Positions 4,105 to 39,103 of a stretch of 56,879 bases of DNA are shown one piece after another. Positions within the stretch are counted from its first letter, which is position 1, and the number at the start of each line of letters is the position of its first letter. Under the pieces are notes generated by a model, which did not search any database, had not been told where the DNA came from, and was given only the letters and a program-made list of their open reading frames with translations. Origin of the DNA: Legionellaceae bacterium UBA2794 (lineage in GTDB: Bacteria; Pseudomonadota; Gammaproteobacteria; Legionellales; Legionellaceae); NCBI GenBank assembly GCA_002352055.1, contig DEHS01000088.1, positions 23,151-80,029 of the forward strand, in the 5' to 3' direction. A program made the translations under genes and the position numbers.

Positions 4105-5954
4105 ATGACAAAAAATACAACAAAATTATTTATCCGCGGTGGTCAGCTTTTTTTGCACAACGTTCGGATGTTCACTCAGGTTGGAAAGAAAGTATTCCTA
4201 GCCATGCTGTTGGTGCAAATCTTAACGATTCCTTTATTTTTTATATTCCACACAAATACATATCAACGCTACCTTGGTAGGCTATTTTTAAAAGCAGAAC
4301 TCACTTTATTAGTCCAATATCAGGCAAAAATAATCCTGCGACTGCCAACAGGTGAAGCATATCCAGTATTTTGCAATCGTATGGCGCATTTCCCATTGGT
4401 CAAAAATAACAATCAAAAAATTATTGAAGCACTTTTGAAAAGCTTTATCGATTCTTTGCTTGCCTCAGTGTTCAGTATGATTCTTATTGTAGGATGGTTG
4501 CAAAAACGAGGTGCACAACAAAGCAAGACTAAGATTCTTCGCGGTAATGCTTTAGTGACAGCTCCACAGTTACAAGAGGCAATTAAAGAAAATTCTAAAA
4601 CTTCTCCTTATCCTGTTGCTGGTATTTATTTACCTGAAGGTTCAGAAACACAACACATTCAAATGGTGGGTACTACAGGTTCAGGAAAAACAGTAGCTAT
4701 TCGCGAACTCTTAAATGTAATTCGTGAACGAGGGGAGCGAGCCATTATTTATGACAAGGAGGGACCTATTTATCGCGGTTTTACCAAAAAGATAAAGACA
4801 TTATTTTAAATCCTTTGGATGCACGTGGGCATGCTTGGAATGTATGGGCTGAGTGTGAGGATAAAGCTGATTTCGAAGCCTTAGCAGAAGCACTAATGCC
4901 TATGCCAATTAATAATACGATGGATCCTTTTTGGATTAATGCTGCACGAATGATTTTTGTTTCTACAGCTAATGAGTTGAAGAAAAATCCCAATCGCTCC
5001 AACATCATGTTGCTGCAATATCTTCTCACCGCAGGGTTAGACAGTATTTATGATTTATTAAAACATACTGAAGCTGAATCCTTAGTTTCAACCAAAGTAC
5101 AAAAAACCGCCTTAAATGTGAAAACGGTGATGGCCACTTATCTTAAGTCACTGCTGTATTTACAAGAAGAGGGTGACGTATTTTCAATTCGAAACTGGAT
5201 ATTAGATGAACAGCAAGATAATTTTCTATTTGTCAGTTCTGATGGGCGCAAGCATCCAACACTAAGACCCTTAATTTCTGCCTGGATTAATACCGCTACC
5301 AAAGAAATATTGGGCATGCCTGCAGATAATCAACGACGTGTTTGGTTTATTTTAGATGAGTTGGCTACCTTGCATGCACTACCTTTTTTAGAGTCCGTCA
5401 AATCAGAAAGCCGTAAATTTGGTGGATGCTTTGTCTTGGGACATCATGGTCCTTCGCAATTGCGTAAAATCTATGGACGAGAAGGGGCATCGATTTTATC
5501 CAATTTATGTTCCACTCGTTTGTATTTACGGCTGCCAGAATATGAAGATGCAGATATTGCATCCCACAACATCGGTACTTATGAAATTGAAGAGGTCAAT
5601 GAATCCGTGAGTTATGGTGCAAATACCATGCGTGATGGAATTTCGGTTTCCAGGCAAATTAAAGAAAAGCGTTTGGTATTACCGACCCAAATCCAGGAAC
5701 TTAATGACATAGAAGGGTATCTGCGTGTTAAGGGCAAATTTCCAGCGGCCAGCGTGCAGTTAAAATACGTTGATTATTCCATTAAGAATGAAGAATTTAT
5801 TGCTCGTCATATAGAACCTGATCCTTTGCGGCAAAATGTAGAGCAATTAATTGATAAATACAGTGGCCCTCTTATAGCACAGCAAGAGGTGCAAAACGAG
5901 CAACAAATTACTGAAAAACCAATAGAGGAGAAGGAACTCGGCGAATTTATATAA
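4105..5954 (+). pseudogene. traD: F-type conjugative coupling protein TraD (T4CP), interrupted by a 1-nt frameshift
   Basis: ORFs 4105-4809 and 4815-5954 are consecutive parts of one TraD. Motifs: N-terminal TM region with RGGQ, Walker A GTTGSGKT, then IIYDKEG | [25 protein letters not shown]. The second part is readable in the other frame from ~4761. Further motifs VWFILDE and RKFGGC. One base appears missing in GAGGG(G)ACC at 4759-4766. Confidence 0.85.
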
Positions 5955-5972
5955 CTAAATCTGCGAGGCCCT

Positions 5973-8900
5973 ATGTTAAGCATTCAACCATTGGAGAGTG
6001 CAGAAGGAGCTGCATCGTATTATCTTAATGTAGTCAACTATTATGCCCAAGACTCTAAAAGCATACGCTGGTTAGGCAGCGGTGCTAAAGAACTGGGAAT
6101 TCATGGTCAAAATGTTGAAAAAGAACAGATGCTTTCTTTGCTGCAAGGCACTTTACCTAATGGACAGCAATTAGGTCGCATTGATAAAGATGGCATTCAC
6201 CACCGCCCGGGTTTTGACATGACCGTCAGCGCACCGAAATCCTTTTCTATATTATTAGAAACTGGAGCTGACCCACGGCTTGCGCAAATCATGGATGATA
6301 CGGTGGATTGGTTTGTCACCGAAATGGAAAAGGAGTTTGCACAAACGCGTCAAATTGTTGATGGTGAGTTGGAATATGCCAATACCCAAAATTTTGTAAT
6401 TGCTGCGTTTCGACAACCTAATTCTCGAGCCAATGACCCACAGACCCATGTGCATTTAGTGGTACAAAATATGACCCACTGCCAGGACGAAAAGTGGCGC
6501 TCACTTGCCAGTGACATGAATGGAAACAAAGGAGTCATTGAGCAAATCATGAAGCATCATATTTATGGTGGGCTTAAGTTTCGCAATAAATTAGCCAATG
6601 GGGTTAAAGACATCGGTTATGAATTGGAAGTTGATGCTCAAGGACTATGGGAAATAAAAGGAATTCCTGAATCCTTAATGACTCATTTTTCTAAACGTCG
6701 ACAAGATATTGAAGGGGTCTTGGAAGAAAATGGTTGGCAAGGTGCTAAAGCTTCTTCGATTGCAGCGCAAAAAACTAAAGTGGATAAAGAGCTCATTGAT
6801 ATTGAGGGGTGGCGTAAAGATATTTTACAAGAATGCCATGAATTTGGATTTAATCCGCATGCCTTTGTTTCAGAGATAAGTCTGCAAAAAAATTCCTTCA
6901 TCAAGACGATCAAAGAACGGGTAATGGAGTACTTTTACAGTAAAGAACAATATCAAATGCAGCATGCGCAAAAGGCAGTTCATGTGGCCATTGAATCAGT
7001 GAGCCAGCAACAAGCGGTATTTGATTGGCGTACTTTAAAAAAAGAGGCATTAATCTACAGTATTGCAAGTCAACATATCATTGATGAGAAATTGATTAAT
7101 CAAGCCATTGAAGAACAAATTAAAACACAAAATCTATATGAAGCCACCCATCCCTACACAAAGCAAAATTTATTAACTACCCCTTGGCAGCTGACTTTAG
7201 AAAGTGAATCGATTGCTTGTATTGAGCAAGGTAAAAATGCAATTAGCCCAATTTGTACCAAACAAAAGGTAAGTGATTTTATCAAAGATAAAGAAAGTGA
7301 ATTGCAATTTTCTTTATCCACTTCCCAGAAACAAGCCATGATTAGTTTTTTAACCACCAAAGACCGTTATATGGCTATTCAAGGTTATGCGGGGACTGGT
7401 AAAACCACTATGTTACGACTCACTAAAGAATTGGCCTTGCAGCAGGGTTATACCTTTCGAGGAATTACAGCTGGTTCTTCTGCAGCTCATGAGCTTTCAG
7501 TTAAAGGTGGCTTAGATGCCACAACCTTTGCTAAAGAGTTAGGGCGCTTACAACGTCAAAAACAAGATTTAAGTAAAACCATTTTTGTGGTGGATGAAGC
7601 TTCGATGCTTTCTAATCCCCAAGGACATAAAATCATTAAACTGGTGGAACAATTTAATACTCAGTTAAAAGTCATCGGGGACAAAGCCCAGCTTCCATCC
7701 CCATCCAGTGGCCGTTGGTTTTCAATAGTGCAAGATTATGGCATTCATACTGTGGCAATGACTGATAATTTACGTCAAAAAGACGAACACCTCAAAGAAT
7801 CTGCGTTACATGCCAGCCGTGGGGAAATTTATGATGCGGTGGAAAAATTAACCCACGTCCATACCGAAAAAACTTATTTAAACCGAGTGCAGCAGATGGC
7901 TAATCTTTGGTTGTCTTTGCCACAAACGGAACGTGAACAAACTTTATGTTTTGCGCCTACGCATCGTAATCGTCATGATGTCACTGAAATTTTACGTCAA
8001 GGGCTACAAAAAGAAGGTAAATTGACCGGTGGAATACATCAACAACCAATTCTTATAGAGCGCAAAATGACAGGCATTCAATTAAGAAACTCCATGTATT
8101 ACTCAGCAAAAGATGTTATTCGCTTTAACACAGCCATTTCCCGTTATCGAATTCAAGCAGGGGAATATCTGACAGTGAATCCAATCAGTGAGCAGAATAA
8201 AAACAAAAATACTTTGTCGTTGCAGCGCTCTGATGGTAAATCTTTTACTTTGCCATTAAACAGTCTTCCACAATATAAAGCCCACCAAAAAGATTTGGAG
8301 CGTCTACTCGAAGTATACCAGCAAGGAAAACTACAACTAATGCAGGGTGATAAAATTCAATGGAAACGAAACTCTGAACCTTATGGAATTCGCAATTCAG
8401 AATTGGGCATCATTAAGACCATTACTAATGAGCATATTGAGATACAACAAGACAACCAAAAAATAATTCAATTAAATCGCAATGCGAATGAATTAAAGCA
8501 TTTAGACCATGGTTATGTATTAACCACTTATGCAGCTCAAGGAAAGGATAAGAAACGAGGTATTGGCTTGATTGAAAGCTTTAACCGCTTTTCAACCACA
8601 ATCCAAAATTTTTATGTAGAAATTACCCGTGCCATTGAGTCAATGACGGTGATAACTGATGATAAAGATACTTTAGTTAAAGCAATTACCTTAAATGATG
8701 CTGATAAGGCTTCAGCTTTAGAGATGGTTTCGGCAGAAACACTTAAAACACATCAGGAACGATTTAAGAGTAAATTAAATCTGCAGAATGTGATTGAGAA
8801 AAAATTAACCAAAGAAAAAGAATGGAATGCAATGGAAAACCAAGTTGCTACTTATTTACAGAGCAAGCAACAAAATAAATCTCCTAGTGCTGCAAAAATG

Positions 8901-11810
8901 GCGCATGTAATCGTGCAGGATTCAAAGTTATATCAGTTGGCTCAAGAACAACTGGGCTTTAAAGCGGGCACTTATCGTACTGATGCCTTAAGATTTCAAA
9001 CAGCAAAGCTTTTTCATTCATTAGACTCACCCCAAAAAAATGCTTTTTCAGTTGTACGCCAATATGTGGCTTTAAATCACCGTATTGCCAAACAAGCCCA
9101 TCATATCAATCAGCTTAAAACAACAAATCCTTTAACCCCCTCTAATAAAAAAGAATTACATTCCTTATCAGTAAAAAGAAATCAATTGGCAACAATCATT
9201 GTAGGGCATTTAGAACTTTATAAACCTTATTTGAAGCATTATTCAATAGGTGAGTTAAATCGAATTGGACTGCCACAATATGAGTACCGCAAAGGAGAAA
9301 CAGCTACAGTTAAAAGACTAGAAACTTTAGTAAAGCATGCGCAAATGGATGTAATAAGAAATCAAGTGATGGAGTACTCTAAAGCTCAAGGAATGGCAAA
9401 AGAGTTCTTGGCCGCTCAAATCAAACGAGAAGCAAAACTGGCTCACCCTTATATTTTAAGTCATGCACAAAGTCTCAATCAAAAGCCAGAAGAGCTTTGG
9501 AAGGCAATTCATCACGATGCACAAATTCAGCGTGACCGCTTATTTAGAGAAGGTCTAAATCCGGTGGGACGAGAGGTTTTTGACAAAGCGAAAGCATATA
9601 AGGAAATCCAAAAACAATTAAGTGAAGGCTGGGCGCAAAAGCTAAAGAATCCTCATGTTCTTGATGAAACATTTAAAAATAATCTGCTAAAGCGTAATGA
9701 GCTGGCTGAACAATTAGTTCAACATCGAGCACTTCCTGATGTCTTGTCTTATTTTAAACTGGATAAGCAGCTGTTGAATCAACAAAAGAATAAACATAGT
9801 TATAAAGAAAATGTGCAACGCTTTATCCATAGCAACAGTAATTTTAAAGTACGGCTTGAAGCAGTTCAAAGCATTAAAGAGGACATTAAAGGACATTATC
9901 CCTATCTTTGTGAGGCTAAGCTTAATCTTAAACTATTCAATAAATATGGCAGAGCAGTTGAGCGACAAGAACGATTCAATGATTTATCTTTGACTGAGCG
10001 CAAGGCTTATCAAACATTTTTAAATTATAAAATGGCTGGGAAAAATGCTTATCAACAATGGCAAAAAGTTCATCGGGACAACTATGGGGTAAAAAAGCAA
10101 GGATTAATACAAGAAGCAATGCAGTGTTCAGCTCATCGTGATGCTCTGGCTCATCAATTAATCAAATCACCTTTTCTTGATTCGATTTTAAATTGTGAAA
10201 AAGGTAATAAAGAAACAATAGTAGCACATGGTGTACAGCATCAAGAGAAGCTTAAAGCACTTAGCCAATTCAATAAATCACTGCACACTTATACTAAACA
10301 GTATTCCTCAATACATCACAAAGAAAAAAAGTCAGAAATTCTTGCTTGGCAAAATAATTGGGCTCAGTTAAATCAACAACTACACCGAATAGAACGCCAT
10401 ACATCTTACCAGTGGGCATTGAAAGAATGCCCTATTAATTCTTCCTCCATTAAGGAAGTCAACAAAGAGCTAGAGGCAGACTATGATTATAGGATTTCAG
10501 AATCACATCCTAATCCAAGCAAATCGAAACAGCTGAAATGTGTTGATAAAGCTTCACAAAAACTCGATGCCCAAATCATTAATGAAGCATTAATAGCTAA
10601 TGCAGAGCAAACTTATAAGAGCATATGGGGTGAACCTAAATCACAAAATACTAAAGAGTTACGTTACAGCGGCGGATTAATTGTGACTTTGAAAGGTAAA
10701 AGCCAAGGTTTATGGTATGACTTTAGTGATGGGGTTGGGGGCTCACCTATTCAAGCCTTAATGAAAGAGCATCATATTTCATTTCCAGAGGCACTTAAAA
10801 AAGCCTCTGAGATCATCGGTTATCAGCCAATTACATCAAGAGTAGATGTAAGTAAAAAACATAAGATATCTAATGAATTAGAAAGAAAAAATAAAATTTT
10901 GGCCGCTCTTAGTATATGGAACGGAGGTGCTTCAATCAAAGGAACCCTTGCTGAGCGCTACTTAAAAGAACACCGAGGCATTGATCCTGCCAAAGAAATC
11001 GATGCACGGTTTTGGCCAGTAGGAGCTCCTTGGACCACCTACAATGAAAATGGGGAGTTAGAGCAAAAAACGAATAAAATTCCTGCTCTTCTTTTTGCAG
11101 CACGAAACAAACAAGGAGAACTCACCGGTGTTCAACGTATTTACTTAGATGCGCAAACAGCTAAGAAAAATACCTTTCTTGAGTCTGCCAAATTGTCCAA
11201 AGGTATTATTGAGGGTAGTGCCGGACTTATTCAAAAAGGGATGAAAAATTCCCGCCTCTATATTGCAGAAGGCCCAGAAACCGCAGCATCCATTGCTATG
11301 GCAGACAGAAAAGCAACAGTATTGGCTTCTTTTGGAATTTCCAATATCAAAAATTTAGGCGAAGTAATTCAAAGTTACAAGCCTAAAGAAATACTGGTGG
11401 CTGCAGATAATGATGGATATAATTCCAAGTCTCAAAAGACTCTTTATAAGACAGTAGAGTTGTTAAAAGAGCAGGGGATTGAAGTAAAAATTTTAGCTCC
11501 TGAGGTTTTGCCTGGTAAATCCAAAACGGATTGGAATGATGTTCTTTTAAGTAAAGGAATTGAGTCAATTCAAAAACAATTATTGGTTCCAAATGTAAAA
11601 ATTGGAGCGTATGAATTTAAAGATCCCATGAATTCAAAAGATCGGATGCAGTTGAATATTAATCAACTTATTACTTCTGATGTAATTAAAATACCTAGAG
11701 TTCATGATGTAAATCAGAAATTGAATAATAATACTCTAAAAAATGATTCAATATCTCTAGAGAAAAATGTTAGAAGAAGAGAATGTGATTTGGAAATGGG
11801 GATATCCTAG
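5973..11810 (+). CDS. traI: MOBF TraI-type relaxase / helicase with C-terminal Toprim primase-like domain
   Basis: 1945-aa ORF. Relaxase: paired tyrosines ASYY..NYY (aa 16-24), HRPGFDMTVSAPKS, His triad QTHVHLVV (H159 at 6447). P-loop helicase: GYAGTGKTT (7383-7409), VVDEASM. C-terminal primase-like region: LWYDFSDGVGGSPI, Toprim YIAEGPETA (E at 11268), AADNDG (11400-11417), TDWNDVL. Confidence 0.9.
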   Translation: MLSIQPLESAEGAASYYLNVVNYYAQDSKSIRWLGSGAKELGIHGQNVEKEQMLSLLQGTLPNGQQLGRIDKDGIHHRPGFDMTVSAPKSFSILLETGADPRLAQIMDDTVDWFVTEMEKEFAQTRQIVDGELEYANTQNFVIAAFRQPNSRANDPQTHVHLVVQNMTHCQDEKWRSLASDMNGNKGVIEQIMKHHIYGGLKFRNKLANGVKDIGYELEVDAQGLWEIKGIPESLMTHFSKRRQDIEGVLEENGWQGAKASSIAAQKTKVDKELIDIEGWRKDILQECHEFGFNPHAFVSEISLQKNSFIKTIKERVMEYFYSKEQYQMQHAQKAVHVAIESVSQQQAVFDWRTLKKEALIYSIASQHIIDEKLINQAIEEQIKTQNLYEATHPYTKQNLLTTPWQLTLESESIACIEQGKNAISPICTKQKVSDFIKDKESELQFSLSTSQKQAMISFLTTKDRYMAIQGYAGTGKTTMLRLTKELALQQGYTFRGITAGSSAAHELSVKGGLDATTFAKELGRLQRQKQDLSKTIFVVDEASMLSNPQGHKIIKLVEQFNTQLKVIGDKAQLPSPSSGRWFSIVQDYGIHTVAMTDNLRQKDEHLKESALHASRGEIYDAVEKLTHVHTEKTYLNRVQQMANLWLSLPQTEREQTLCFAPTHRNRHDVTEILRQGLQKEGKLTGGIHQQPILIERKMTGIQLRNSMYYSAKDVIRFNTAISRYRIQAGEYLTVNPISEQNKNKNTLSLQRSDGKSFTLPLNSLPQYKAHQKDLERLLEVYQQGKLQLMQGDKIQWKRNSEPYGIRNSELGIIKTITNEHIEIQQDNQKIIQLNRNANELKHLDHGYVLTTYAAQGKDKKRGIGLIESFNRFSTTIQNFYVEITRAIESMTVITDDKDTLVKAITLNDADKASALEMVSAETLKTHQERFKSKLNLQNVIEKKLTKEKEWNAMENQVATYLQSKQQNKSPSAAKMAHVIVQDSKLYQLAQEQLGFKAGTYRTDALRFQTAKLFHSLDSPQKNAFSVVRQYVALNHRIAKQAHHINQLKTTNPLTPSNKKELHSLSVKRNQLATIIVGHLELYKPYLKHYSIGELNRIGLPQYEYRKGETATVKRLETLVKHAQMDVIRNQVMEYSKAQGMAKEFLAAQIKREAKLAHPYILSHAQSLNQKPEELWKAIHHDAQIQRDRLFREGLNPVGREVFDKAKAYKEIQKQLSEGWAQKLKNPHVLDETFKNNLLKRNELAEQLVQHRALPDVLSYFKLDKQLLNQQKNKHSYKENVQRFIHSNSNFKVRLEAVQSIKEDIKGHYPYLCEAKLNLKLFNKYGRAVERQERFNDLSLTERKAYQTFLNYKMAGKNAYQQWQKVHRDNYGVKKQGLIQEAMQCSAHRDALAHQLIKSPFLDSILNCEKGNKETIVAHGVQHQEKLKALSQFNKSLHTYTKQYSSIHHKEKKSEILAWQNNWAQLNQQLHRIERHTSYQWALKECPINSSSIKEVNKELEADYDYRISESHPNPSKSKQLKCVDKASQKLDAQIINEALIANAEQTYKSIWGEPKSQNTKELRYSGGLIVTLKGKSQGLWYDFSDGVGGSPIQALMKEHHISFPEALKKASEIIGYQPITSRVDVSKKHKISNELERKNKILAALSIWNGGASIKGTLAERYLKEHRGIDPAKEIDARFWPVGAPWTTYNENGELEQKTNKIPALLFAARNKQGELTGVQRIYLDAQTAKKNTFLESAKLSKGIIEGSAGLIQKGMKNSRLYIAEGPETAASIAMADRKATVLASFGISNIKNLGEVIQSYKPKEILVAADNDGYNSKSQKTLYKTVELLKEQGIEVKILAPEVLPGKSKTDWNDVLLSKGIESIQKQLLVPNVKIGAYEFKDPMNSKDRMQLNINQLITSDVIKIPRVHDVNQKLNNNTLKNDSISLEKNVRRRECDLEMGIS

Positions 11811-29485: not shown

Positions 29486-29517
29486 AAACAATTATTAGAT
29501 TTTAAGTTGAAATACAA

Positions 29518-29979: not shown

Positions 29980-30009
29980 CCGCCTCAACGCCGCCGCAAA
30001 CCGCCGCAA
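29980..30009. repeat. three GC-rich 9-mers at 10-11 bp spacing (iteron-like)
   Basis: CCGCCTCAA (29980-29988), CCGCCGCAA (29991-29999), CCGCCGCAA (30001-30009). They sit in an AT-rich convergent intergenic gap. Confidence 0.6.
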
Positions 30010-30038
30010 TAGGGGGATCGAGATAGTAATATGGTGAG

Positions 30039-31430
30039 TTATAGTAACTCCCAGTGACCACCTTTATCTGGTCCGACGCGTTTTAAGCGCCCTTGTTCTT
30101 TTAGTTTATTTATTTGCTTTAATATTGCTCTTTGAGTTATACCTATAATTGTTCCTAATTGTTCTGTTGTAATAAATGGATCCTGTTTCATTAATTCAAG
30201 GATATGATTTTCAGTTTTCTGTGAACTTTTCTGTGAACTTTTCTGTGAACTTTCTAAGATTTCATGTGAGTCATAGGTTTTTCTATGAACTATAGCTGTG
30301 AACAAACATCCTTCTCGATCATCGCTAAAATCTATACTTGGCCATTGATCTAAAGCCCTTTTAATTCCGGAGCCAAGACCATGATAGGGTAATAATCCTT
30401 TAGCAACATAAGACACTAAAATCGGATTGCGTATATTGGAATTACCAGTCCTGATTTTTTCTACTGTTAAATTATCTGGTAGATGCCCTGGGCTAATAAT
30501 TTCAATGCGATTATCAAAGATAAATATTCGAATAGGTGCATTAACCAAATAATCCCGATGTACTAATGCATTGACTAGTAATTCTTCAAAAACACTTTCT
30601 GGGATCTCAGGTAATCCAGGGGCATTCACGCCTCGTCCAGCTTGGATTTTATGTAAATTACGCATAATAAATGCCATTGCATCATCAAATATTTTAGAAA
30701 GAGGTCCTACAAAATCCTCTGTATCTATATAATCAGTTGCGTGGATTTTATTACCTGGGTATCGAATGGCTTTTACCACAAATTGAGGTTTTATCCATTC
30801 TGGGCGCTCAGTAAACATGAGTACCCCAGCAAGATTTAAGACATTATCATCTGTTGCCAGATTCATATTTTTTAATAATTGCAGTAAATCTTCTACAGTA
30901 TCCGGGTATTCTTGTTTATAAACATCACGCAAAAAATCACGAAAACGCAGTTTGTCTAATTTATCGATGCCAGCTTTAGTAGGTAATTCATCTGCATAAA
31001 ATTGATCAGAGATTTGAAAGAGGCGTCTTAATTCTTCTTTTGAATTTATCCTTCGTTTGTCAGCCCCAGTTTTGAGCCAAATAACCCCATTTTTATCAAA
31101 ATAGGGTTTATCAATACCTTTGGGGATAGTAAGAATAATCACAACACGATTGTTTTCCAGAGCAACATTTTGTGTCTGTACGGTGACTGGACTGCGTACA
31201 AGATGACTGCTTGCATTGCTAATCAATTGGTTGATGCGATGAACATCTTCTTTAGATAATCCAGGTATTGAACCATCATCTGCAACTCCTATAAATATTG
31301 TGCCTCCATTAAAATTGGCAAATGCAGCTATTTCTGCGGCTAAAGATTCTGCATTACGTATGTCCAATTTAAATTGGCGGGTGCTGTCCTCTCCAAGCTC
31401 AATTTCATTATGTAATGATTTGAGATTCAT
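30039..31430 (-). CDS. AlbA_2 (Schlafen-like) + HATPase_c_4 + C-terminal winged-helix protein
   Basis: AAEIAAFANFNGGTIFIGVADDGSIPGL (AlbA_2), LLVNALVHRDY..ISPGHLP..IRNPIL (RecG-C/HATPase_c_4), C-terminal wHTH. 4-nt overlap with int. Confidence 0.75.
   Translation of the reverse strand: MNLKSLHNEIELGEDSTRQFKLDIRNAESLAAEIAAFANFNGGTIFIGVADDGSIPGLSKEDVHRINQLISNASSHLVRSPVTVQTQNVALENNRVVIILTIPKGIDKPYFDKNGVIWLKTGADKRRINSKEELRRLFQISDQFYADELPTKAGIDKLDKLRFRDFLRDVYKQEYPDTVEDLLQLLKNMNLATDDNVLNLAGVLMFTERPEWIKPQFVVKAIRYPGNKIHATDYIDTEDFVGPLSKIFDDAMAFIMRNLHKIQAGRGVNAPGLPEIPESVFEELLVNALVHRDYLVNAPIRIFIFDNRIEIISPGHLPDNLTVEKIRTGNSNIRNPILVSYVAKGLLPYHGLGSGIKRALDQWPSIDFSDDREGCLFTAIVHRKTYDSHEILESSQKSSQKSSQKTENHILELMKQDPFITTEQLGTIIGITQRAILKQINKLKEQGRLKRVGPDKGGHWELL
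30215..30250. repeat. perfect 3 x 12-bp tandem repeat inside a CDS (encodes SSQKSSQKSSQK)
   Basis: TTTTCTGTGAAC x3 read directly from the sequence. Confidence 0.9.
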
Positions 31431-32683
31431 AAAGTATTTTCCTTACATTCATTTAATAATGGCTGCCATGGTTGAACAGTTGAAGTCACTAAGCTGATAT
31501 TATTTTCTTTCTTCACTAACTCTTCAATATACTTTCCCCATTGATTTAATGCATCTTTGCGTTGAGGCAGCATTTCATTTTTATTATATGTTGCCATGAT
31601 TTTAGGCATCTTATGGCCTAAACATTTTTCAATAACCACAGGATCGATATGCAATGTTTCCCCGAGTTGAGTAGCAAAAGTTCTTCGCAAATCATGCGGC
31701 GTCCATTGAGGAATACCTAAGCGTTCCTGCAGACGAATTACTGCTTTAGGTAAAGCTTTATCGGAAAGAGGCAGGTCTTCATTGATTCCAGCAAGAACAT
31801 ATGTGGAGTTGTTCTGTGTTTTAAGTTCAAAGAAAAGTTGTTTAACTGGTTGGCTTAAATGGATTTTCATTGGGATTCGTGATTTAGAATGTTCTGCTGG
31901 TATAGTCCATAGAGAATTGATGAAATCAAATTCTTTCCATTGAGCGAGTCGTAATTCCCCGGTCCTAACTCCGGTCAATAAAATAATTTTTATAGCATTT
32001 TTTATTTGTAATGAAAGCGCATGTTTGTCACTGTCTAAAAAAAGCCAAAGATTTTTGATTTCATCAATGCTTAGATGGCGTTCTCTAGGTTTTTCCATGC
32101 CGCCGATGTCTTTTGCTAAAATACTCTCAGCAGGATTTTGCTGAATACTGCCACGGCGCACCCCATAACCTAATGCTTGTTTTAATGCAGCCAATACTTT
32201 ATTAGCATGAACTGGAGAACCACGATTTACAATTTTATCTAATGCTTGTGTGATATCTTTTGTTTTTAAAGCCTCAAGCTTTTTTTCGCCTAAAAGAGGG
32301 ATGATGTCTGCGTCAATAATTTGCTTAATTTGTTTGGGTTGTGCGCGCTGTTTTTCTATGTAACCAGTATACCAGTCAAGAACCAGTTTTTTTACTGTAC
32401 TGTGATCGTATTCATTTTGTTCTTTTATTATTTCTTTAGGATTTAGTCCTGCGCGTCGTTTATCTCTGAATTCTAAAAAACTTTTTCTGGCATCAGAAAG
32501 ACTCATTTCAGGATAATGCCCAAGAATAATGTAATCTTTTTTATTATCGATCTTATAACGGTAAATCCAGGTTTTTGTTCCAGTAGGGTAGATCATGATC
32601 CCAAATCCACCGCCTTCAAATTTTTCTTCCCGCTTGTCCTTTGGTTTTAGTCGTTTAATAAACGTGTCCGTAAATTGATTCAT
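31427..32683 (-). CDS. int: P4-type tyrosine site-specific integrase (DUF4102 arm-binding N-domain)
   Basis: GGFGIMIYPTGTKTWIYRYK, TGVRTGEL, HDLRRTFAT, LGHKMPKIMATYNK (R..HxxR..Y). Confidence 0.9.
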   Translation of the reverse strand: MNQFTDTFIKRLKPKDKREEKFEGGGFGIMIYPTGTKTWIYRYKIDNKKDYIILGHYPEMSLSDARKSFLEFRDKRRAGLNPKEIIKEQNEYDHSTVKKLVLDWYTGYIEKQRAQPKQIKQIIDADIIPLLGEKKLEALKTKDITQALDKIVNRGSPVHANKVLAALKQALGYGVRRGSIQQNPAESILAKDIGGMEKPRERHLSIDEIKNLWLFLDSDKHALSLQIKNAIKIILLTGVRTGELRLAQWKEFDFINSLWTIPAEHSKSRIPMKIHLSQPVKQLFFELKTQNNSTYVLAGINEDLPLSDKALPKAVIRLQERLGIPQWTPHDLRRTFATQLGETLHIDPVVIEKCLGHKMPKIMATYNKNEMLPQRKDALNQWGKYIEELVKKENNISLVTSTVQPWQPLLNECKENTL

Positions 32684-32708
32684 CGGCTCCGCCTGATAAT
32701 TATTTTAA

Positions 32709-32732
32709 TGGGTACTTTAGTGGGTACTTTTT
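32709..32732 (+). repeat. 24-bp direct repeat copy 1 (candidate integrase arm-type site)
   Basis: TGGGTACTTTAGTGGGTACTTTTT, itself an internal doublet of GGGTACTTT. It lies 26 nt upstream of the int start. Confidence 0.85.
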
Positions 32733-32850
32733 TATGTACTTACATGAAATAAGTTGTTATTGCTTGATACATAGATTAATATTATAATCCTTATATATCA
32801 ATGTTTAAATCAGGTTTTTAGTTTTATTTGAGATTAGTTGATATCGGTTT

Positions 32851-32903
32851 GCACTAGCATGGGGTGCTAGTGGTCGAAGGTTCAAATCCTTCCGTCCCGA
32901 CCA
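32851..32903 (+). tRNA. 3' fragment of tRNA-Pro(GGG): anticodon arm to CCA, 5' acceptor/D arm missing (att core)
   Basis: Anticodon stem-loop CTAGC-ATGGGGT-GCTAG (anticodon GGG at 32861-32863, U33, G37). Variable loop TGGTC. T arm GAAGG-TTCAAAT-CCTTC. Acceptor 3' strand CGTCCCG, then A, then CCA. No complementary 5' acceptor strand (YGGGRYG) upstream. Confidence 0.75.
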
Positions 32904-32951
32904 GTTAAATCAAGTAGTTACGCAGTTCTCCCTTCGGTTATAAATTTTTAG

Positions 32952-32975
32952 TGGGTACTTTAGTGGGTACTTTTT
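32952..32975 (+). repeat. 24-bp direct repeat copy 2
   Basis: Identical TGGGTACTTTAGTGGGTACTTTTT 49 nt downstream of the tRNA fragment. Confidence 0.85.
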
Positions 32976-33122
32976 ACAATCTAAGAAAATCACTTTAAGA
33001 CATATGGCTTGGCATAAAGCAACTTGCTGAACTAATCTTTAGATTACAATTAAATGTAGATTATTAAGCAACTTTTAATTGTTGAGATAAATCTATGGGA
33101 GGCTTTTTTAAGCAAATTATTT

Positions 33123-34328
33123 ATGGAAATAAGCAACATCGAAGATTTCAAACATATACTTCAAAGTGCCCGCCTGAACTTTCTTATTGGCTCTGGTCTT
33201 TCCACTCCTTATTTAAGAACATTGGGAGATATTGAAAATCGATTTGAAGAACTAGAGGCAACTGAAGATTGTGTAGCAAAAGAATTAGCACGCGCTTCAA
33301 TTATTAAAGTGTATTTTGAGTTGAGCATCAGTAAAAATTATGAACTTTGCCATAATCAATCAGAAGACTATCAAGCAGTATTAAATAATTACAAAGCATT
33401 TCTCCATAATCTAAACAAAATTATTTTATTAAGGAGAAGCAATCTTTTAAGTAAACAAGTAAATTTGTTTACAACTAATGTTGACATCTTTCTAGAAAAG
33501 TCTCTCGAAGAACAGCATCTTGAATTCAATGATGGTTTCACTGGTACTTTAAAACCAAGTTTTGAATTAAGCAATTTTAAAAAGTCACTTTACAAAACCA
33601 GTCCACATTATGATGTTAAATCAGAAGTACCTGTGTTTAATTTATTTAAGTTACATGGATCAGTTACGTGGCAATTAGACTCAAAAGAGTCAATCAAACT
33701 TGATAATAAGTTAGATATTATAAAAACTATGCGCTCACACCTGAATGCCTTACCTGATCAATTATTGGACGAGGCAACTAAAGATAATGGAAAAGATATT
33801 AAGACAATAGAGGAACTTCTATTGGGATATCAGGGTAAGAAAATTCATGAAGATATTCAATTACTTTTATCAAATCTGAAAGATTCTTATGCCCGTATTC
33901 CTATGATTAATCCTACAAAAGAGAAATTTAAATTTACTACACTGAACTATACATACTATGAATTATTAAGAATGTTCTCGAATGAAATGGAGAGAGAAAA
34001 TTCAGTTTTATTTGTGATGGGCTTTTCTTTTGCTGATGAGCATTTAAGAGAGATTGTTCTCAGAGCTATAAACTCCAATCCAACCCTTATTGTTTATATA
34101 TTTCCTTACGATGCAAAAGCAAAAGAACAAATTAAAGGATATCTAAAATTTCAAGATTGTCTGCCCAAAAATAACAACTTAAAGTTCGTTGTACACGAAG
34201 ACGAAACCATAAAAAACGATTTAGCCAATATAAATATGAATTATTTTGAAAAACTGGCGGATAGTTTAATTAGGCCAGAACAATCTAAATCGACACCAAC
34301 AGATCTAGATGGAGAAAAGAATGAGTAA
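33123..34328 (+). CDS. SIR2-like (SIR2_2) NAD-binding/NADase protein
   Basis: FLIGSGLS (33180-33203), LFTTNVD (~33470), FKLHGSVTW (~33650), FVMGFSFADEHL. Confidence 0.85.
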   Translation: MEISNIEDFKHILQSARLNFLIGSGLSTPYLRTLGDIENRFEELEATEDCVAKELARASIIKVYFELSISKNYELCHNQSEDYQAVLNNYKAFLHNLNKIILLRRSNLLSKQVNLFTTNVDIFLEKSLEEQHLEFNDGFTGTLKPSFELSNFKKSLYKTSPHYDVKSEVPVFNLFKLHGSVTWQLDSKESIKLDNKLDIIKTMRSHLNALPDQLLDEATKDNGKDIKTIEELLLGYQGKKIHEDIQLLLSNLKDSYARIPMINPTKEKFKFTTLNYTYYELLRMFSNEMERENSVLFVMGFSFADEHLREIVLRAINSNPTLIVYIFPYDAKAKEQIKGYLKFQDCLPKNNNLKFVVHEDETIKNDLANINMNYFEKLADSLIRPEQSKSTPTDLDGEKNE

Positions 34329-36204
34329 CTTTGTTGCTGATATTATAAGTAAATCCTCCGTCTTAAAAGTTGGGATAGTTATTTCAGTTGAGGGAAGAAC
34401 TATAAAGGTTTTGGTTGACAGAGAAAAAAACACTTCTCATCTTTTTTATAAAGGGGAGCTTGTTAAGAGCATTGTAGTAGGAAGCTATGTAAAAATTACA
34501 AAAGGCTTTGAGGAACTTGTTGGTAAAATAGAAGGTGAATATATAGAAGAAGATAATTTTCAATCTAAAAAAAACTACAAAACTGATTTAGCCAAAATTA
34601 GACGTATATTGGTAATTAGTTTGCTTGGGTATTTTAATGTATCTACTTTTGAAAGAGGAATTAAAGAACTGCCATTGATTGACAATGAATGCTTCTTATT
34701 AGATGAAAAAGAATTTAGTAGAGTTCACCATTTTATAAAAGAAGATGATACCCCTATTCACATAGGTCAGCTTGCTCAAGAACGTGGAATGTCTGTAGAT
34801 CTTGGTGTTAATGGGCTTTTTGCAAGCCATGTTGGAATTTTTGGAAATACTGGAAGTGGGAAATCCTATACTCTTGCGAGCTTATACCATACACTTTTTC
34901 AACAATACAAAGATATGACTGGCTTTAAAAAGAATGCTGCATTTTTTCTTATCGATTTTAATGGAGAATATATTAATCTAGAGGACAAAAATAATGATAA
35001 TGTCATTACAGATGCTTCCTATAAATCCACATATAACCTATCCACCAAGAAAACGGGCAATAAACAATTTCCGATTAATAAAGACTTTTTAACTGATGTC
35101 TCTATCTGGAAGATAATCTTGGAGGCTACCGAAAAAACACAAACACCATTTATCAGTAGAGCTATCTTCAATGATTATCTTGACAACCAAATTGGCAATA
35201 AAGAATTATTTAATGAATACATCATTGATTTAGTAAATCGAATATTAGAATCAAATAATTATTTATATATTGAACTTCCCTCAAAGCTTCTATCTGATAT
35301 AAATCAGATCATAAATGCTAATTTATCAACTCTAATTAATAAATTTAGACAGCATTTAAATTATCACGGAAAAGAAAATAATAAATTTTATTTGAGAATA
35401 GATGGTTCTTCAATTTACTTTGACAAAGCAGAATTTAAAAGTACTATTAGCGCTTGGTTTAAAGATGTAGATTTATATGATCCTCAGTTAAGTAATATAA
35501 AAAAAATATGGCTAAAATTCATTTGTCAGTACTATCACGAAATAATAAGTGGATATTCTAATCAAGAGCATTTGGCCCCTTTGATTAAAAGAATGGAAAC
35601 TCGAATTCCCGAGCTTGAAAAGGTCATTTGTGTAACCAAGGAGGGCAAAAAAAATAACCAGGCTATTAATTTTACTATTATTTCTTTGAAAGATGTTAAT
35701 ACTCATATGAAAAAAATTTTACCACTAATTTTATGTAAACAGTTATATGAAGAAAAGAAAGCTAATTCCAATAAGTGCTCTTTTTTGAACATTATTATAG
35801 ATGAAGCACACAACATCCTATCGGAAGATTCACAAAGAGAAAGTGAGCAATGGAAAGACTATCGCTTAGAAACTTTTGAGGAAATAATTAAAGAAGGACG
35901 TAAATTTGGGGTATTTTTAACTATTGCAAGTCAACGACCTTCTGATATTTCACCTACAATTATCTCACAACTCCATAATTATTTTTTGCATCGTCTTATT
36001 AACAATAACGATATAAAAGCAATAGAGCGAACAGTGTCCTATTTAGACAAAGTATCTTTTGAATCCTTACCTATCTTACCCACAGGAACATGTATTCTTG
36101 CAGGGCTTGTTGCTCAAGTTCCGGTTGTAGTGGAAATAAAAAAAATTGATGCTAAATATAAGCCATTTAATCAAACTATTGTACCAACAAAATATTGGAA
36201 TTAA
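34309..36204 (+). CDS. herA: HerA-like (DUF87) hexameric ATPase
   Basis: N-terminal HAS-barrel-like VGIVISVEGRTIKVLV. Walker A GIFGNTGSGKSYT (~34841-34870). Walker B NIIIDEAHNIL (~35791-35820). TIASQRPSDIS. Overlaps the SIR2 gene by 20 nt (8 nt if the ATG at 34321 is used). Confidence 0.85.
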   Translation: MEKRMSNFVADIISKSSVLKVGIVISVEGRTIKVLVDREKNTSHLFYKGELVKSIVVGSYVKITKGFEELVGKIEGEYIEEDNFQSKKNYKTDLAKIRRILVISLLGYFNVSTFERGIKELPLIDNECFLLDEKEFSRVHHFIKEDDTPIHIGQLAQERGMSVDLGVNGLFASHVGIFGNTGSGKSYTLASLYHTLFQQYKDMTGFKKNAAFFLIDFNGEYINLEDKNNDNVITDASYKSTYNLSTKKTGNKQFPINKDFLTDVSIWKIILEATEKTQTPFISRAIFNDYLDNQIGNKELFNEYIIDLVNRILESNNYLYIELPSKLLSDINQIINANLSTLINKFRQHLNYHGKENNKFYLRIDGSSIYFDKAEFKSTISAWFKDVDLYDPQLSNIKKIWLKFICQYYHEIISGYSNQEHLAPLIKRMETRIPELEKVICVTKEGKKNNQAINFTIISLKDVNTHMKKILPLILCKQLYEEKKANSNKCSFLNIIIDEAHNILSEDSQRESEQWKDYRLETFEEIIKEGRKFGVFLTIASQRPSDISPTIISQLHNYFLHRLINNNDIKAIERTVSYLDKVSFESLPILPTGTCILAGLVAQVPVVVEIKKIDAKYKPFNQTIVPTKYWN

Positions 36205-36290
36205 TCAATGTCATTTTCCAGCAATGATGCTGTAATTTTCAAACGCTAAACCACTATAAAAAAACGATCCTAATTTTTATATAATCCGAG

Positions 36291-36829
36291 ATGAAGAGTA
36301 TGAGTATTTTTTTAGAAACAGAGCGACTAACTCTTAAAGTTCCCCAACTATTAGATTTAGAAAAGCTCATCGAGTTACGTGCTGATGCTGAAGTAATGAA
36401 ATACACAGGCGAAGGTGGGGCTCAAACCAAAGAACAAGTGCAAGACTATTTGAATTTCGCAATTTCTTATCAAAAAAACATGATATGGGATTTTGTTTAG
36501 TATTTGAAAAAGAAAGTGGGAACTTTGTTGGTGAAGCAGGCATATTTCATTTACTCTTTGATGACACCCAGCCTGAAATAGAAATCAACTATCATTTACA
36601 TAAAAAATTCTGGGGAAAAGGTTATGCTACTGAATTAGCCAAAGCTCTAATTGATTGGGGTTTTCAGCATTTATTAATTAATAAGATTGTTGCTGCCAGT
36701 TACCCAAAGCAAACCGCATCTCAAAGGGTATTGCAAAAATCAGGTTTTAATTTTAAGGGTAAAAAACTAACAAGCGATGGTTTGGAGTTATATTGGTACG
36801 AAATTCAAAAAAGGAAACCTCATGGATAA
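36291..36829 (+). pseudogene. GNAT (Acetyltransf_3) gene split by a 1-nt deletion in an A-run
   Basis: ORFs 36291-36500 and 36485-36829 are the two halves. With A8 instead of A7 at 36472-36478 the product reads ...NFAISYQKKHDMGFCLVFEKESGNFVGEAG... Confidence 0.7.
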
Positions 36830-37505
36830 ACCGCTAATCATGATAACAGGCGCAAGCTCAGGTCTCGGTGCCAGTACTGCAAAATTATTCTCGAGAGCGG
36901 GTTACCCACTTGCGTTATTTTCACGCAATCTTGCAAAGATGGAGCAACTTAATTTAAATAACGTTAAGTTATATGCGGTCGATGTTGCTGATAAAAATCA
37001 ATTAGATGAAGCAATACAAAATGTAAAAAACCAATATGGTTTTATTGATTGTCTTATTAATAATGCAGGAATTGCCATTGACGGAGATTTTACAGAAATA
37101 AGTGCTAGTGCAAGAGAAGAAATGGTAGACACTAATTTAAAAGGACTGATGAATACTATAGAACTGGTTTTGCCAGAGATGCAAGCTCATAAAAGAGGAA
37201 CAATTATCAATATAAGTTCTCTTTCTGATCGCAGAGCAAGACCTAATAATCCCGTTTATGCAGCGACAAAGGCTGCAGTGAGAAGTTTAACCGGGTCGCT
37301 ACGTATGGCCTATGCTTCCTCGGGCATTCGTTTTTGCAATATTGCACCTGCGAAAATTCACAGCCCTATGTGGGATGAACCCTATGATCCAGATTATTTT
37401 GTGAGTAGTGAAACTTTTGCTGAAACTTTGTTGTGGATTTATCAACAACCACAGAGTGTTTGCATACGCGATCTGGTGATCGCGCCTACTAATTATGAGC
37501 CATAA
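36822..37505 (+). CDS. short-chain dehydrogenase/reductase
   Basis: ATG at 36822 (MDKPLIMITGASSGLG). NNAG, YAATKAAV. Confidence 0.85.
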   Translation: MDKPLIMITGASSGLGASTAKLFSRAGYPLALFSRNLAKMEQLNLNNVKLYAVDVADKNQLDEAIQNVKNQYGFIDCLINNAGIAIDGDFTEISASAREEMVDTNLKGLMNTIELVLPEMQAHKRGTIINISSLSDRRARPNNPVYAATKAAVRSLTGSLRMAYASSGIRFCNIAPAKIHSPMWDEPYDPDYFVSSETFAETLLWIYQQPQSVCIRDLVIAPTNYEP

Positions 37506-37517
37506 AAAGAGAAACAT

Positions 37518-38510
37518 ATGCTACCTATTATTCCAAATAAACTTAAACAAGGCGATGAAATCCGAGTCATTGCCCCATCTAGAAGTTTAGCTATTATCAC
37601 TGAGCAGACAAGAAAAATAGCAAATCAGCGATTTGAAGATTTAGGGTTAAAATTAAGTTTTGGGCAACATGTGATTGAAAGTGACGTGTTTTATTCCAGT
37701 TCCATCAAGTCACGACTTCATGATTTACATGAGGCTTTTCATGATAAAAATATCAAAGCCATTTTCACAGTTCTAGGTGGTTACAATGTGAACCAATTGT
37801 TAGATGGAATTGATTACCAATTAATTGCATCAAATCCTAAAATACTTTGCGGTTATTCCGATATTACCGCGTTACAAAACGCTATTTATGCTAAAACGGG
37901 TCTTGTAACTTATTCAGGACCACATTATTCAAGCTTAGGCATGGAACAGGGCATAGACTGGTCTTTGGATTATTTAATAAAGTGCTTATTTAATGAGGCA
38001 CCTTATATTATAGAAGCAAGCACTCAATGGAGTGATGACGCTTGGTTTTTAGATCAAACAAATCGTCATTTTATGTCGAATGATGGCCATTGGATCATAC
38101 AACCAGGAGAAGCTAAAGGAACAATTCTCGGTGCTAATTTATGCACTTTGAATTTATTGCAAGGCTCGGCATTTATGCCTTCATTAGAAAATAGTATTTT
38201 GTTTTTAGAGGATGATGCGCTCACAGGAAATGAATCAGCAGTGATCTTTGATAGAGATTTACAATCTCTAATTCAGCAACCAGGTTTTGAAGGAGTTAAA
38301 GGTTTAATCATTGGTCGTTTTCAGAAAGCCTCACATATATGCTGTGATCTATTAAAAACCATTATTCAAAATAAAAAAGAATTAAGAAACATGCCCATCA
38401 TTGCTAATGTGGATTTTGGTCACACAGATCCTATGATTACTTTTCCGATTGGAGGAACAATACAGATTGAAGCAGCAGAGCAGACTAAGTTAACAATATT
38501 AAGTCATTAA
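37518..38510 (+). CDS. ldcA: S66 LD-carboxypeptidase (LdcA/MccF family)
   Basis: GGYN, nucleophile motif CGYSDITAL, LEDD, VDFGHTDP. Confidence 0.8.
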   Translation: MLPIIPNKLKQGDEIRVIAPSRSLAIITEQTRKIANQRFEDLGLKLSFGQHVIESDVFYSSSIKSRLHDLHEAFHDKNIKAIFTVLGGYNVNQLLDGIDYQLIASNPKILCGYSDITALQNAIYAKTGLVTYSGPHYSSLGMEQGIDWSLDYLIKCLFNEAPYIIEASTQWSDDAWFLDQTNRHFMSNDGHWIIQPGEAKGTILGANLCTLNLLQGSAFMPSLENSILFLEDDALTGNESAVIFDRDLQSLIQQPGFEGVKGLIIGRFQKASHICCDLLKTIIQNKKELRNMPIIANVDFGHTDPMITFPIGGTIQIEAAEQTKLTILSH

Positions 38511-38568
38511 ATTAGTCTAGAATCTAACTGCTGTTTTTGGCTAGAGGAAAAGCTATTCCAAATATTAT

Positions 38569-38778
38569 TTATTGATAAGCGCTGACGTCATTAACTTTTT
38601 GACTAATCCATTGCTCAATAATTGCAGAATCCCAAGATAAAACATATCCGTTTATTTTAAATGGTTTGGGAAATTGTCCATTGGTCCACCATCGGCGCAA
38701 AGTTAGTCTGTTACGACCAATGAGTTGTTCAACATCTTTGATGAATAGTATGCGTTGTTTAAATTCCTTAGATTGCAT
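38569..38778 (-). CDS. alpA: AlpA-family phage/island regulatory protein (excisionase-like HTH)
   Basis: RILFIKDVEQLIGRNRLTLRRWWTNGQFPKPFKINGYVLSWDSAIIEQWI. Confidence 0.85.
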   Translation of the reverse strand: MQSKEFKQRILFIKDVEQLIGRNRLTLRRWWTNGQFPKPFKINGYVLSWDSAIIEQWISQKVNDVSAYQ

Positions 38779-38811
38779 AATTTACTCCTTAAAAAATCAA
38801 ATCTATAAAAA

Positions 38812-38847
38812 TACTCGATACGTGCAATTATTAAATCATATCGAGTA
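38812..38847. promoter_or_regulatory. perfect 9-bp inverted repeat in the divergent alpA / peptide-gene promoter region
   Basis: TACTCGATA, 18 nt, then TATCGAGTA. It lies 34-69 nt upstream of the alpA start. Confidence 0.35.
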
Positions 38848-38947
38848 GTTTCATGCAATACCTTTATCATAAAGAGTAGGCTATACATTTATGCTGTTGG
38901 TCTATATAATAAGCAACAACACATTACAATCAGTAAGGAGAGTTAGC

Positions 38948-39097
38948 ATGATTTTATTGGATATAATAGAAAATGCGGTTGGTAATGAGTATTTAGGAGA
39001 TGCTGAGCACCTAGATATTTGTGTAGTAGAAGATTATCTAACTATGTCTTCAAATCAGTTAGATCAACCATCAACCAATAAGATTGTGAGTTTATAA
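38948..39097 (+). CDS. 49-aa acidic peptide, candidate split-borosin precursor
   Basis: ATG at 38948 preceded by AAGGAG at 7 nt. Its stop is 6 nt before the methyltransferase ATG. MILLDIIENAVGNEYLGDAEHLDICVVEDYLTMSSNQLDQPSTNKIVSL. Confidence 0.4.
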   Translation: MILLDIIENAVGNEYLGDAEHLDICVVEDYLTMSSNQLDQPSTNKIVSL

Positions 39098-39103
39098 CAT
39101 TCA

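Follow-up and report, generated by a model that had tools for sequence, protein, structure and literature searches.

A stretch of 56,879 nucleotides from the Legionellaceae bacterium UBA2794 (contig DEHS01000088.1, positions 23,151 to 80,029), here called the window, contains two overlapping genes, one of SIR2 type and one of HerA type, that lie directly beside an attachment (att) core and a tyrosine integrase, and the locus raises the question of what the pair does and to what kind of genetic element it belongs. SIR2 and HerA pairs act as NAD-depleting abortive-infection systems against phages, and integrative elements carry defence cargo in hotspots at their ends, P2/P4 and the integrative and conjugative elements (ICEs) of the SXT type being examples. 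The favoured reading, to which a probability of roughly 0.8 is given, is that the two genes would form a functional SIR2-HerA (Nezha-type) abortive-infection operon, carried as cargo by a conjugative element that integrates at tRNA-Pro(GGG) in a Legionella species.

A sequence-only reading of the window had proposed both open reading frames (ORFs) and had picked out motifs in each, and all of these are present where it placed them. In the SIR2 protein they are FLIGSGLS (residues 20-27), TTNVD (117-121), KLHGS (176-180) and GFSFADEHL (300-308), and in HerA, numbered from an in-frame ATG at 34309 that gives an alternative product of 631 residues, GNTGSGKS (179-186), IIIDEAH (495-501) and ASQRPSDIS (540-548). 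The overlap of 8-20 nt that it gave for the two genes also holds, being 8 nt when counted from the ATG at 34321 and 20 nt from that at 34309. The HerA start is taken as 34321 because a GGAG lies well spaced, 6 nt 5' of that codon, and because the NCBI record of an identical protein (P0001, 627 residues) uses the same ATG; this is the more likely true start and would entail ATGAGTAA-type translational coupling to SIR2. The family identity suggested from the motifs was borne out by significant profile matches for both proteins. In Pfam the SIR2 protein matches SIR2_2 (3.5e-9, 37.3 bits against a gathering cut-off of 24.5 bits) and HerA matches DUF87, the HerA central domain (1.4e-17, 65 bits against 23.2 bits), and with the PADLOC profiles the scores are far beyond chance, at 3.2e-63 for SIR2 (PDLC04080) and 1.4e-168, or 560 bits, for HerA (PDLC04097). 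The latter match covers model positions 3-611 of 618, and this full-length coverage by the hidden Markov model (HMM), together with an all-beta prediction for residues 18-112, agrees with the HAS-barrel-like N-terminus that had been proposed for HerA, a region in which AlphaFold confidence is low.

The top PDB sequence matches of both proteins are the SIR2-HerA complexes of Paenibacillus (8w9l, 8wiv, 8wld), S. aureus (8yho, 8yhx) and E. coli (8j4u, 8su9), the SIR2 protein matching the SIR2 subunits of 8w9l, 8yhx and 8j4u, and HerA matching the HerA chains of 8yho, 8wiv and 8j4u, followed by HerA-DUF4297 and archaeal HerA. In the alignment with 8w9l, residues N163, D165 and H212 of the Paenibacillus protein PsSIR2, which have been named as its putative catalytic residues (PMC11472057), pair with N119, D121 and H178. 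The same three residues and the GxGxS and GFSxxDxH motifs are invariant among 50 SIR2 homologues, as are the Walker A, Walker B and SQRP motifs among 49 HerA homologues. An AlphaFold2 model of SIR2 (predicted local distance difference test score (pLDDT) 81, predicted template modelling score 0.82) was used in a fold search of the PDB, in which ranks 1-38 were all SIR2 chains of SIR2-HerA complexes, with E = 2e-12 to 2e-7, and in which ThsA, DSR2 and KomC appeared only from 1e-5. The HerA model was weaker (pLDDT 70), and its best match was the S. aureus HerA 8yhx_A, with other defence HerAs ranking next; the HerA fold alone has no discriminating power, since HerA-DUF4297 chains score as well as 8yhx_A. 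HMMs, fold search, catalytic residues and gene pairing thus agree, and the assignment of the two ORFs as a SIR2-HerA pair, which the sequence-only reading had also made, is supported.

The pairing itself is highly regular. In 31 of 31 loci of the genome collection with more than a C-terminal HerA fragment, a SIR2 homologue ends where HerA begins, and the ten closer-relative loci (L035-L040, L042-L045) show the same arrangement without exception. Against the closest relative, L042, with a protein identity of about 89-90%, the ratio of non-synonymous to synonymous substitution rates (dN/dS) is 0.10 for SIR2 and 0.13 for HerA, with dS unsaturated at 0.4-0.6, values that indicate purifying selection on both genes and show only that they are being maintained. 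These results bear on the possibility that HerA belongs to a DNA repair or translocation machine, or that the pair is an inactive relic, with the SIR2 neighbour incidental. Lower-scoring matches to the archaeal repair HerA (4d2i, NF040937) and to CedD are what such a view could draw on. However, no NurA, Mre11 or Rad50 partner is present, the SIR2 pairing is kept in every full-length relative examined, and the defence HerA model scores 560 bits against 79 bits for the repair HerA, whilst decay is hard to reconcile with a dN/dS of about 0.1 and with catalytic motifs that are intact. This alternative is therefore considered highly improbable: a HerA-NurA repair reading was rejected on the conserved SIR2 pairing and on the large lead of the defence models over repair HerA, and a pseudogene reading was rejected on the dN/dS values and the intact motifs.

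If the pair works as the solved systems do, HerA would provide a hexameric ATPase and DNA-handling platform with a double ring of 12-14 SIR2 subunits on top, and the complex would be kept inactive until it met infection cues, either phage proteins such as single-stranded DNA-binding protein (SSB) or exposed DNA ends. These cues would release the SIR2 NADase, for which N119, D121 and H178 are the predicted active-site residues, and the ensuing depletion of NAD+ would stop growth of the infected cell and block the spread of phage. In the systems that have been characterised, SIR2 forms rings of 12 or 14 subunits on a HerA hexamer and catalytic mutants of either protein lose protection (PMC11472057), HerA binding opens the SIR2 active site allosterically (PMC11514289), and in the E. 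coli type III system phage SSB and Gp5.9 trigger a HerA nickase, and DNA ends drive ATP consumption that lifts the ATP block on the NADase (PMC13434337). It is by analogy with these systems that complex assembly, NADase activity, a trigger and a protective phenotype may be attributed to the window pair.

The likeness extends to organisation. In the known SIR2-HerA or Nezha systems, from Paenibacillus sp. 453MF (8W9L, 8WLD) and S. aureus (8YHO, 8YHX), the E. coli Nezha (8J4U, 8SU9) and the E. coli types I-III, as in the window, there are two co-oriented genes with SIR2 upstream, a SIR2_2 protein with catalytic Asn, Asp and His, and a HerA in which a RecA-like ATPase bearing Walker A and B motifs follows an N-terminal beta-barrel region; they too are carried on mobile elements, and it is they that give the best PDB sequence and fold matches of both proteins. 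The HerA-DUF4297 and other HerA-paired defence systems (8XAU, 9C1M, 8ZIQ) share a scaffold ATPase of the same fold (fold-search E of about 1e-14 to 1e-15), but the HerA-DUF4297 effector is a DUF4297 nuclease, whereas that of the window is predicted to be a SIR2 NADase. Unlike the solved systems, the window pair sits in a separate and populous subclade, that of the PADLOC profiles PDLC04080 and PDLC04097, composed mostly of Bacteroidota, Acidobacteriota, candidate-phyla-radiation bacteria and Legionella, and no experimental characterisation of this subclade was found in the literature.

A number of results weigh against the favoured reading. The top NCBIfam matches are to SIR2_antiphage and HerA_antiphage, and both miss their thresholds, at 90 bits against an equivalog cut-off of 500 and 117 bits against one of 800. 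As these scores lie far under the equivalog cut-offs, the pair is placed inside the wider family but outside the subfamily that the models describe. Identity to every solved system is only about 14-19% in Foldseek alignments, and phmmer gives local matches only (1e-13 to 1e-28). The E. coli SIR2-HerA subtypes are themselves only 13-22% identical to each other, so that the divergence of the Legionella pair is unremarkable, but stoichiometry, ATPase activity and the mode of action of HerA, as nuclease or as nickase, vary between characterised subtypes, and with so divergent a pair the SIR2 stoichiometry, the role of HerA (nuclease, nickase or helicase) and the trigger are not transferable. The HerA model is of low confidence over the barrel (residues 1-128) and over residues 553-607, and a consensus scan upstream of SIR2 found no sigma-70 site.

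The second part of the question, to what element the pair belongs, turns on the att region. The sequence-only reading had set the pair directly across a tRNA-Pro att core from the integrase; the position stands, the core ending 219 nt before the SIR2 start, but what the window holds is not a whole tRNA, only the 3' 51 nt of one, and the window arrangement is not that of the public assemblies. ARAGORN found no complete tRNA gene in the window, and Rfam with permissive thresholds over 30-40 kb gave chance-level matches only. The core is conserved beside a related integrase in L. adelaidensis and Legionella sp. 16cNR16C, and the integrase belongs to a family with more than 600 close relatives, mostly in Legionella. 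On each side of the core lies a 30-nt arm repeat that consists of a tandem pair of 12-mers ([A/G]TGGGTACTTT); only four matches to the 12-mer occur in the window, all of them in the two arm repeats (window 32706-32730 and 32949-32973), where 0.05 would be expected by chance. The same pair of 12-mers is found in the same place beside 92-96% identical integrases in three Legionella contigs (L050-L052). The 12-mers are read as arm-type integrase sites because the pairs flank the core and recur beside these integrases. An exact search for the 25-nt arm repeat in metagenome contig and viral contig collections gave no match.

Public assemblies of the same organism hold the two sides of the window on separate junctions. 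Contigs with SIR2-HerA (one of 183 kb from NCBI and one of 10 kb from JGI; loci L046 and L047) run from chromosomal genes, including flagellar genes, an E1 dehydrogenase and an acyl-CoA dehydrogenase upstream of the tRNA, through an intact tRNA-Pro(GGG) and then continue at 100% identity to window 32853-46204, a stretch made up of the arm repeat, SIR2-HerA and the following genes, so that a type-1 arm repeat, the kind present in the window, lies between the intact tRNA-Pro and SIR2. Contigs with the integrase (L048 and L049) are 100% identical to window 21427-32903 and then run for 496 or 467 nt of different sequence to their ends. The identity of the window switches between the two sets of contigs exactly at the 51-nt core (window 32853-32903, compared with L046 8507-8583, L047 2-78, L048 1-547 and L049 1-518), and no public assembly of this organism contains the integrase-core-SIR2 junction of the window. 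The sequence past the core on the integrase contigs carries a different tandem pair of 12-mers, TTGGTACCAGTT and TTGGTACCGAT (TTGGTACC; the type-2 arm), which matches the arm repeat beside the L. adelaidensis integrase, and Legionella sp. 16cNR16C has a third flavour after its core. Tandem 12-mer pairs thus occur 45-150 nt from the tRNA-Pro core in three flavours, GGGTACTTT, TTGGTACC and GGTGTACTT, with further sites at L041 5893-5916, L048 405-428 and L050 about 9688-9712. Each flavour appears to be tied to a different integrase, and these ties suggest that several islands, with arm-type sites particular to each, are stacked at a single tRNA-Pro gene.

The simplest reading of these junctions would be a tandem stack of islands at tRNA-Pro in which both arms of the type-1 element carry type-1 arm sites. 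In the integrated state represented by the public contigs, attL would then consist of tRNA-Pro, core, type-1 arm and SIR2-HerA, and attR of integrase, type-1 arm and core, followed by the type-2 arm of the next island. Because the public assemblies hold tRNA-Pro with SIR2-HerA and the integrase on separate junctions, the window would represent an attP-type junction (integrase, P arm, 51-nt core, P' arm, SIR2-HerA), arising either from an excised circle or from an assembly path across the repeat. A conjugative element with tRNA-Pro(GGG) as its integration site would therefore probably carry the pair as its first cargo, just inside attL, and the suggestion that the pair occupies a cargo slot next to the att site was right in substance. 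The placement is not free of difficulty, as the assignment to an ICE rests on matching arm repeats, with no complete element seen on one contig, and assembly across the 51-nt repeat could have produced the integrase-core-SIR2 junction.

An arrangement in which SIR2-HerA is chromosomal, or lies on an older, decayed island downstream of tRNA-Pro, was also considered. The window would then be the attR of an integrated ICE, the public contig with tRNA-Pro and SIR2-HerA would be an empty attB, and the 496 nt past the core would be the other end of the ICE. Both public assemblies do place SIR2-HerA behind an intact tRNA-Pro that is itself preceded by chromosomal genes (flagellar genes and dehydrogenases), the integrase contigs do run past the core into different sequence, and on both models the observed junctions are three out of a possible four. 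However, the flank on the SIR2 side has a 30-nt repeat 97% identical to the one on the integrase side, and the sequence past the core has the different 12-mer pair TTGGTACC found in the arm of the L. adelaidensis integrase, so that an attP with unlike arms would have to be accepted, which is less parsimonious than a tandem array; in addition, the SIR2 side contains an AlpA-like gene, and its cargo of GNAT, APH and NTP-transferase genes is of the same kind. Such a chromosomal origin is accordingly regarded as unlikely. Related contigs end at the core, which bears on whether the att-proximal slot is a recurrent hotspot.

That the element is conjugative in type is suggested by its gene content, as a relaxase and a type IV coupling protein are present. 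The gene for the coupling protein is broken into two forward-strand ORFs that lie in different frames (4105-4809 and 4815-5954; profile positions 2-62 and 71-387), which is either a frameshift that would disable conjugation or an assembly error. Mating-pair-formation genes of a type IV secretion system are absent inside the window; a public contig runs 25 kb past its left end. When three segments of the window were compared with plasmids by megablast, only short matches were found, all from Legionella; the window is not a known plasmid, since these matches are short.

The mobile unit itself can be delimited by comparison with L042. Window 33010-36205 and L042 1294-4482 are 88.4% identical by blastn, with no similarity beyond that span, and because nucleotide homology is confined to this interval the unit is taken to be a 3.2-kb cassette of a 113-nt leader and two genes, extending to the HerA stop codon. 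The GC content over the cassette is 30%, against about 35% on either side. Like the hotspots of P2/P4 and SXT-type ICEs, the window has a defence cassette of atypical GC right beside the att and integrase end; it differs from them in its host (Legionella), in its target (tRNA-Pro(GGG)) and in that the cassette abuts P' arm repeats. The 219-nt spacer between tRNA and SIR2 folds no better than shuffled sequence (z = 0.02), and the consensus scan predicted no terminator between tRNA-Pro and SIR2. State-dependent expression of the operon is possible, since it lies just inside attL, co-directional with tRNA-Pro and with no predicted terminator between them: in the integrated ICE, transcription from the tRNA-Pro promoter would read through into the operon and express it, and after excision the operon would lie across attP from the divergent integrase promoter and come under other regulation. 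That expression depends in this way on the state of the ICE, and that the module serves conflicts with other Legionella mobile elements, is a speculative and rather improbable idea; were it true, SIR2-HerA would serve the ICE less for the immunity of the host than as a weapon or addiction module in conflicts with other Legionella mobile elements. The features discussed are collected in Table 1.

Table 1. Coordinates of the features of the SIR2-HerA locus and its surroundings, as positions in the window.
Feature	Position	Strand	Evidence or description
Conjugation module	4105..11810	+	Pfam TrwB_AAD_bind, TraG-D_C, TrwC, AAA_30, DUF7146, Toprim_3
TrwC relaxase + AAA_30 helicase + DUF7146 + Toprim_3 primase fusion, 1945 residues	5973-11810	+	single protein, Pfam
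AlbA_2/Schlafen, HATPase_c_4 and winged helix-turn-helix protein	30039..31430	-	Pfam; start overlaps integrase stop codon by 4 nt
Tyrosine integrase	31427..32683	-	Pfam Arm-DNA-bind_3 3e-18, Phage_int_M 1e-9, Phage_integrase 2e-20; far side of att core from SIR2
Arm repeat, integrase side (P arm)	32703..32732	+	tandem pair of 12-mers, TAATGGGTACTT and TAGTGGGTACTT
att core, 3' 51 nt of tRNA-Pro(GGG), anticodon arm through CCA	32853..32903	+	identical to 3' part of intact tRNA-Pro(GGG), L046 8507-8583 and L047 2-78
Arm repeat, SIR2 side (P' arm)	32946..32975	+	30-nt copy, 97% identical to 32703-32732
Leader, 113 nt, travels with operon	33010..33122	+	left edge of 3.2-kb cassette common to L042
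SIR2 gene, 401 residues	33123..34328	+	SIR2_2-family NADase effector (predicted); GxGxS NAD-binding motif at 23-27; putative catalytic N119, D121, H178
HerA gene, 627 residues from ATG 34321	34321..36204	+	N-terminal beta-barrel region and RecA-like ATPase; Walker A GNTGSGKS, Walker B IIIDEAH
Weak terminator-like hairpin	36219..36232	+	15 nt past HerA stop codon; consensus scan only; similar number of sites expected by chance
AlpA-like small DNA-binding protein, candidate excision regulator/excisionase	38569..38778	-	Pfam Phage_AlpA 4.3e-7; SIR2-HerA side of att

The distribution of relatives places the pair within a large family. Of the candidates scored, 5,803 proteins fall in the HerA subfamily at E <= 1e-20, and outside Legionella its members in the genome collection (about 55% identity) come mostly from Bacteroidota, Acidobacteriota and candidate-phyla-radiation metagenome-assembled genomes (MAGs); a scan of that collection yielded no copy above 56% identity, so that its representative genomes do not include the source species. 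The HerA and integrase proteins of the window are identical to proteins of the Legionella sp. MAG GCA_035441085.1. In L. pneumophila two pairs (P0125 with P0009, and P0122 with P0006) are found in many genomes, with identities of 74-77% for SIR2 and 65-67% for HerA. The first of these, P0009 with P0125, occurs in 36 indexed blocks of the collection, on contigs that include records of 3.5 Mb and 1.6 Mb, and lies inside an ICE, with TraU, TraG_N, a coupling protein and AcaB before it and two Integrase_1-type genes and ArdA after it; the second, P0006 with P0122, is on a small island with a P4-type integrase, RelB and TumE. Both resemble the window pair in gene order, in start and stop codons that overlap or abut, and in their position on integrative elements beside integrase genes, but they differ in the type of element, an ICE (TraU, TraG, coupling protein, AcaB, Integrase_1-type recombinases, ArdA) or a P4-type island (RelB, TumE), and the operon alone is common to them and the window, homology beginning at the SIR2 start codon. 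Another relative, with 70% HerA identity (L043/L044), sits beside a Prim-Pol/DUF5906 primase and an integrase on a satellite-like element. On 192 plasmids there are relatives that are more distant, with the annotation "ATP-binding protein | SIR2 family protein", and a HerA tblastn search of the phage collection gave zero matches.

Such a distribution invites the suggestion that the pair serves mainly in mobile-element conflict or in ICE addiction or stabilisation rather than in phage defence, killing or arresting cells upon entry of a competing plasmid or ICE, or upon loss of the element; the sequence-only reading had likewise raised the policing of plasmids or ICEs, a speculative idea. Every Legionella context seen is a mobile element (the L. 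pneumophila ICE with ArdA nearby, the P4-type island with toxin-antitoxin genes), the relatives on plasmids number 192 and those on phage records none, and SSB and exposed DNA ends would presumably also arise during conjugative entry. However, all tested SIR2-HerA systems protect against phages, phages of Legionella do exist, as LME-1 and CRISPR spacers targeting Microviridae attest, and no data tie SIR2-HerA to the exclusion of plasmids or ICEs, so that a primary role of this kind is thought quite unlikely and phage defence continues to be preferred.

A third gene of the system was considered and rejected. In L043 (11892-12752) and L044 (3359-4219) a gene for a 287-residue protein lies 4 nt past HerA and may be a third component in that lineage, but it is absent from the window and from the Legionella relatives. 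Three MAG contigs, from Acidobacteriota, Saccharibacteria and Gracilibacteria (L031 10001-10531, L032 10001-10426 and L033 10001-10501), hold only the C-terminal 140-180 residues of HerA, at 70-80% identity and without SIR2 nearby; these fragments look like remnants of decayed operons.

Several neighbouring genes deserve mention. Right after HerA, a GNAT acetyltransferase is split by a frameshift (36291-36500 and 36485-36829, forward strand), and it is probably a real pseudogene, because both public assemblies call the same split (66-69 and 114 residues). The gene for the AlbA_2/Schlafen protein, which overlaps that of the integrase, is a conserved companion of this integrase family: the two occur together in L. 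adelaidensis, Legionella sp. 16cNR16C and two metagenome contigs, and L050-L052 are among the loci with this pairing; the protein has weak PADLOC matches to proteins associated with prokaryotic Argonautes and is a candidate for a regulatory or defence role. On both sides of the att site (710-3710, 11835-15435, 25863-27698 and 46282-56792) there are many GNAT acetyltransferases, together with APH-type kinases and nucleotidyltransferases, among them an ANT(6)-like streptomycin adenylyltransferase at 55929-56792 (4.9e-113), and this dense array of enzymes that modify small molecules looks like resistance or detoxification cargo. At 44816-46248, genes for an AlaX-like editing protein and for a phosphotransferase lie in a 1.4-kb segment that has a counterpart, at 87% identity, on the 130-kb conjugative plasmids of L. 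pneumophila (pLPP type) and L. hackeliae. At 39104-41170 a gene of the TP_methylase family (266 residues) is convergent with a 432-residue ORF that has no Pfam or NCBIfam match.

The SIR2-HerA family is well known and has been heavily studied structurally and biochemically, and the window pair is detected by standard tools; the finding leaves the known mechanism unchanged. Phage isolates are rare in Legionella, and the genus was long thought to lack phages. The sequence-only reading had presented the pair as unstudied in a Legionella-like host with few phages, and this is correct in so far as no experimental work on SIR2-HerA in Legionella was found in the literature, but homologues are present in many L. 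pneumophila genomes, the defence repertoires of that species have been catalogued with PADLOC and DefenseFinder, and the Legionella phage LME-1 has been isolated (PMC12407071). What is added is a well-supported SIR2-HerA operon in the defence repertoire of Legionella ICEs, and an operon family that occurs on at least three unrelated mobile elements within the genus. The att anatomy, with its 51-nt core and three flavours of arm repeat, provides a clean example of tandem island stacking at tRNA-Pro, and it carries the caution that a contig may hold an attP-type junction unlike the integrated arrangement. LME-1 and the L. pneumophila homologues together offer a practical route to asking whether NAD+-depleting abortive infection works in an intracellular pathogen, and the homologues also allow its effect on ICE or plasmid traffic to be addressed.

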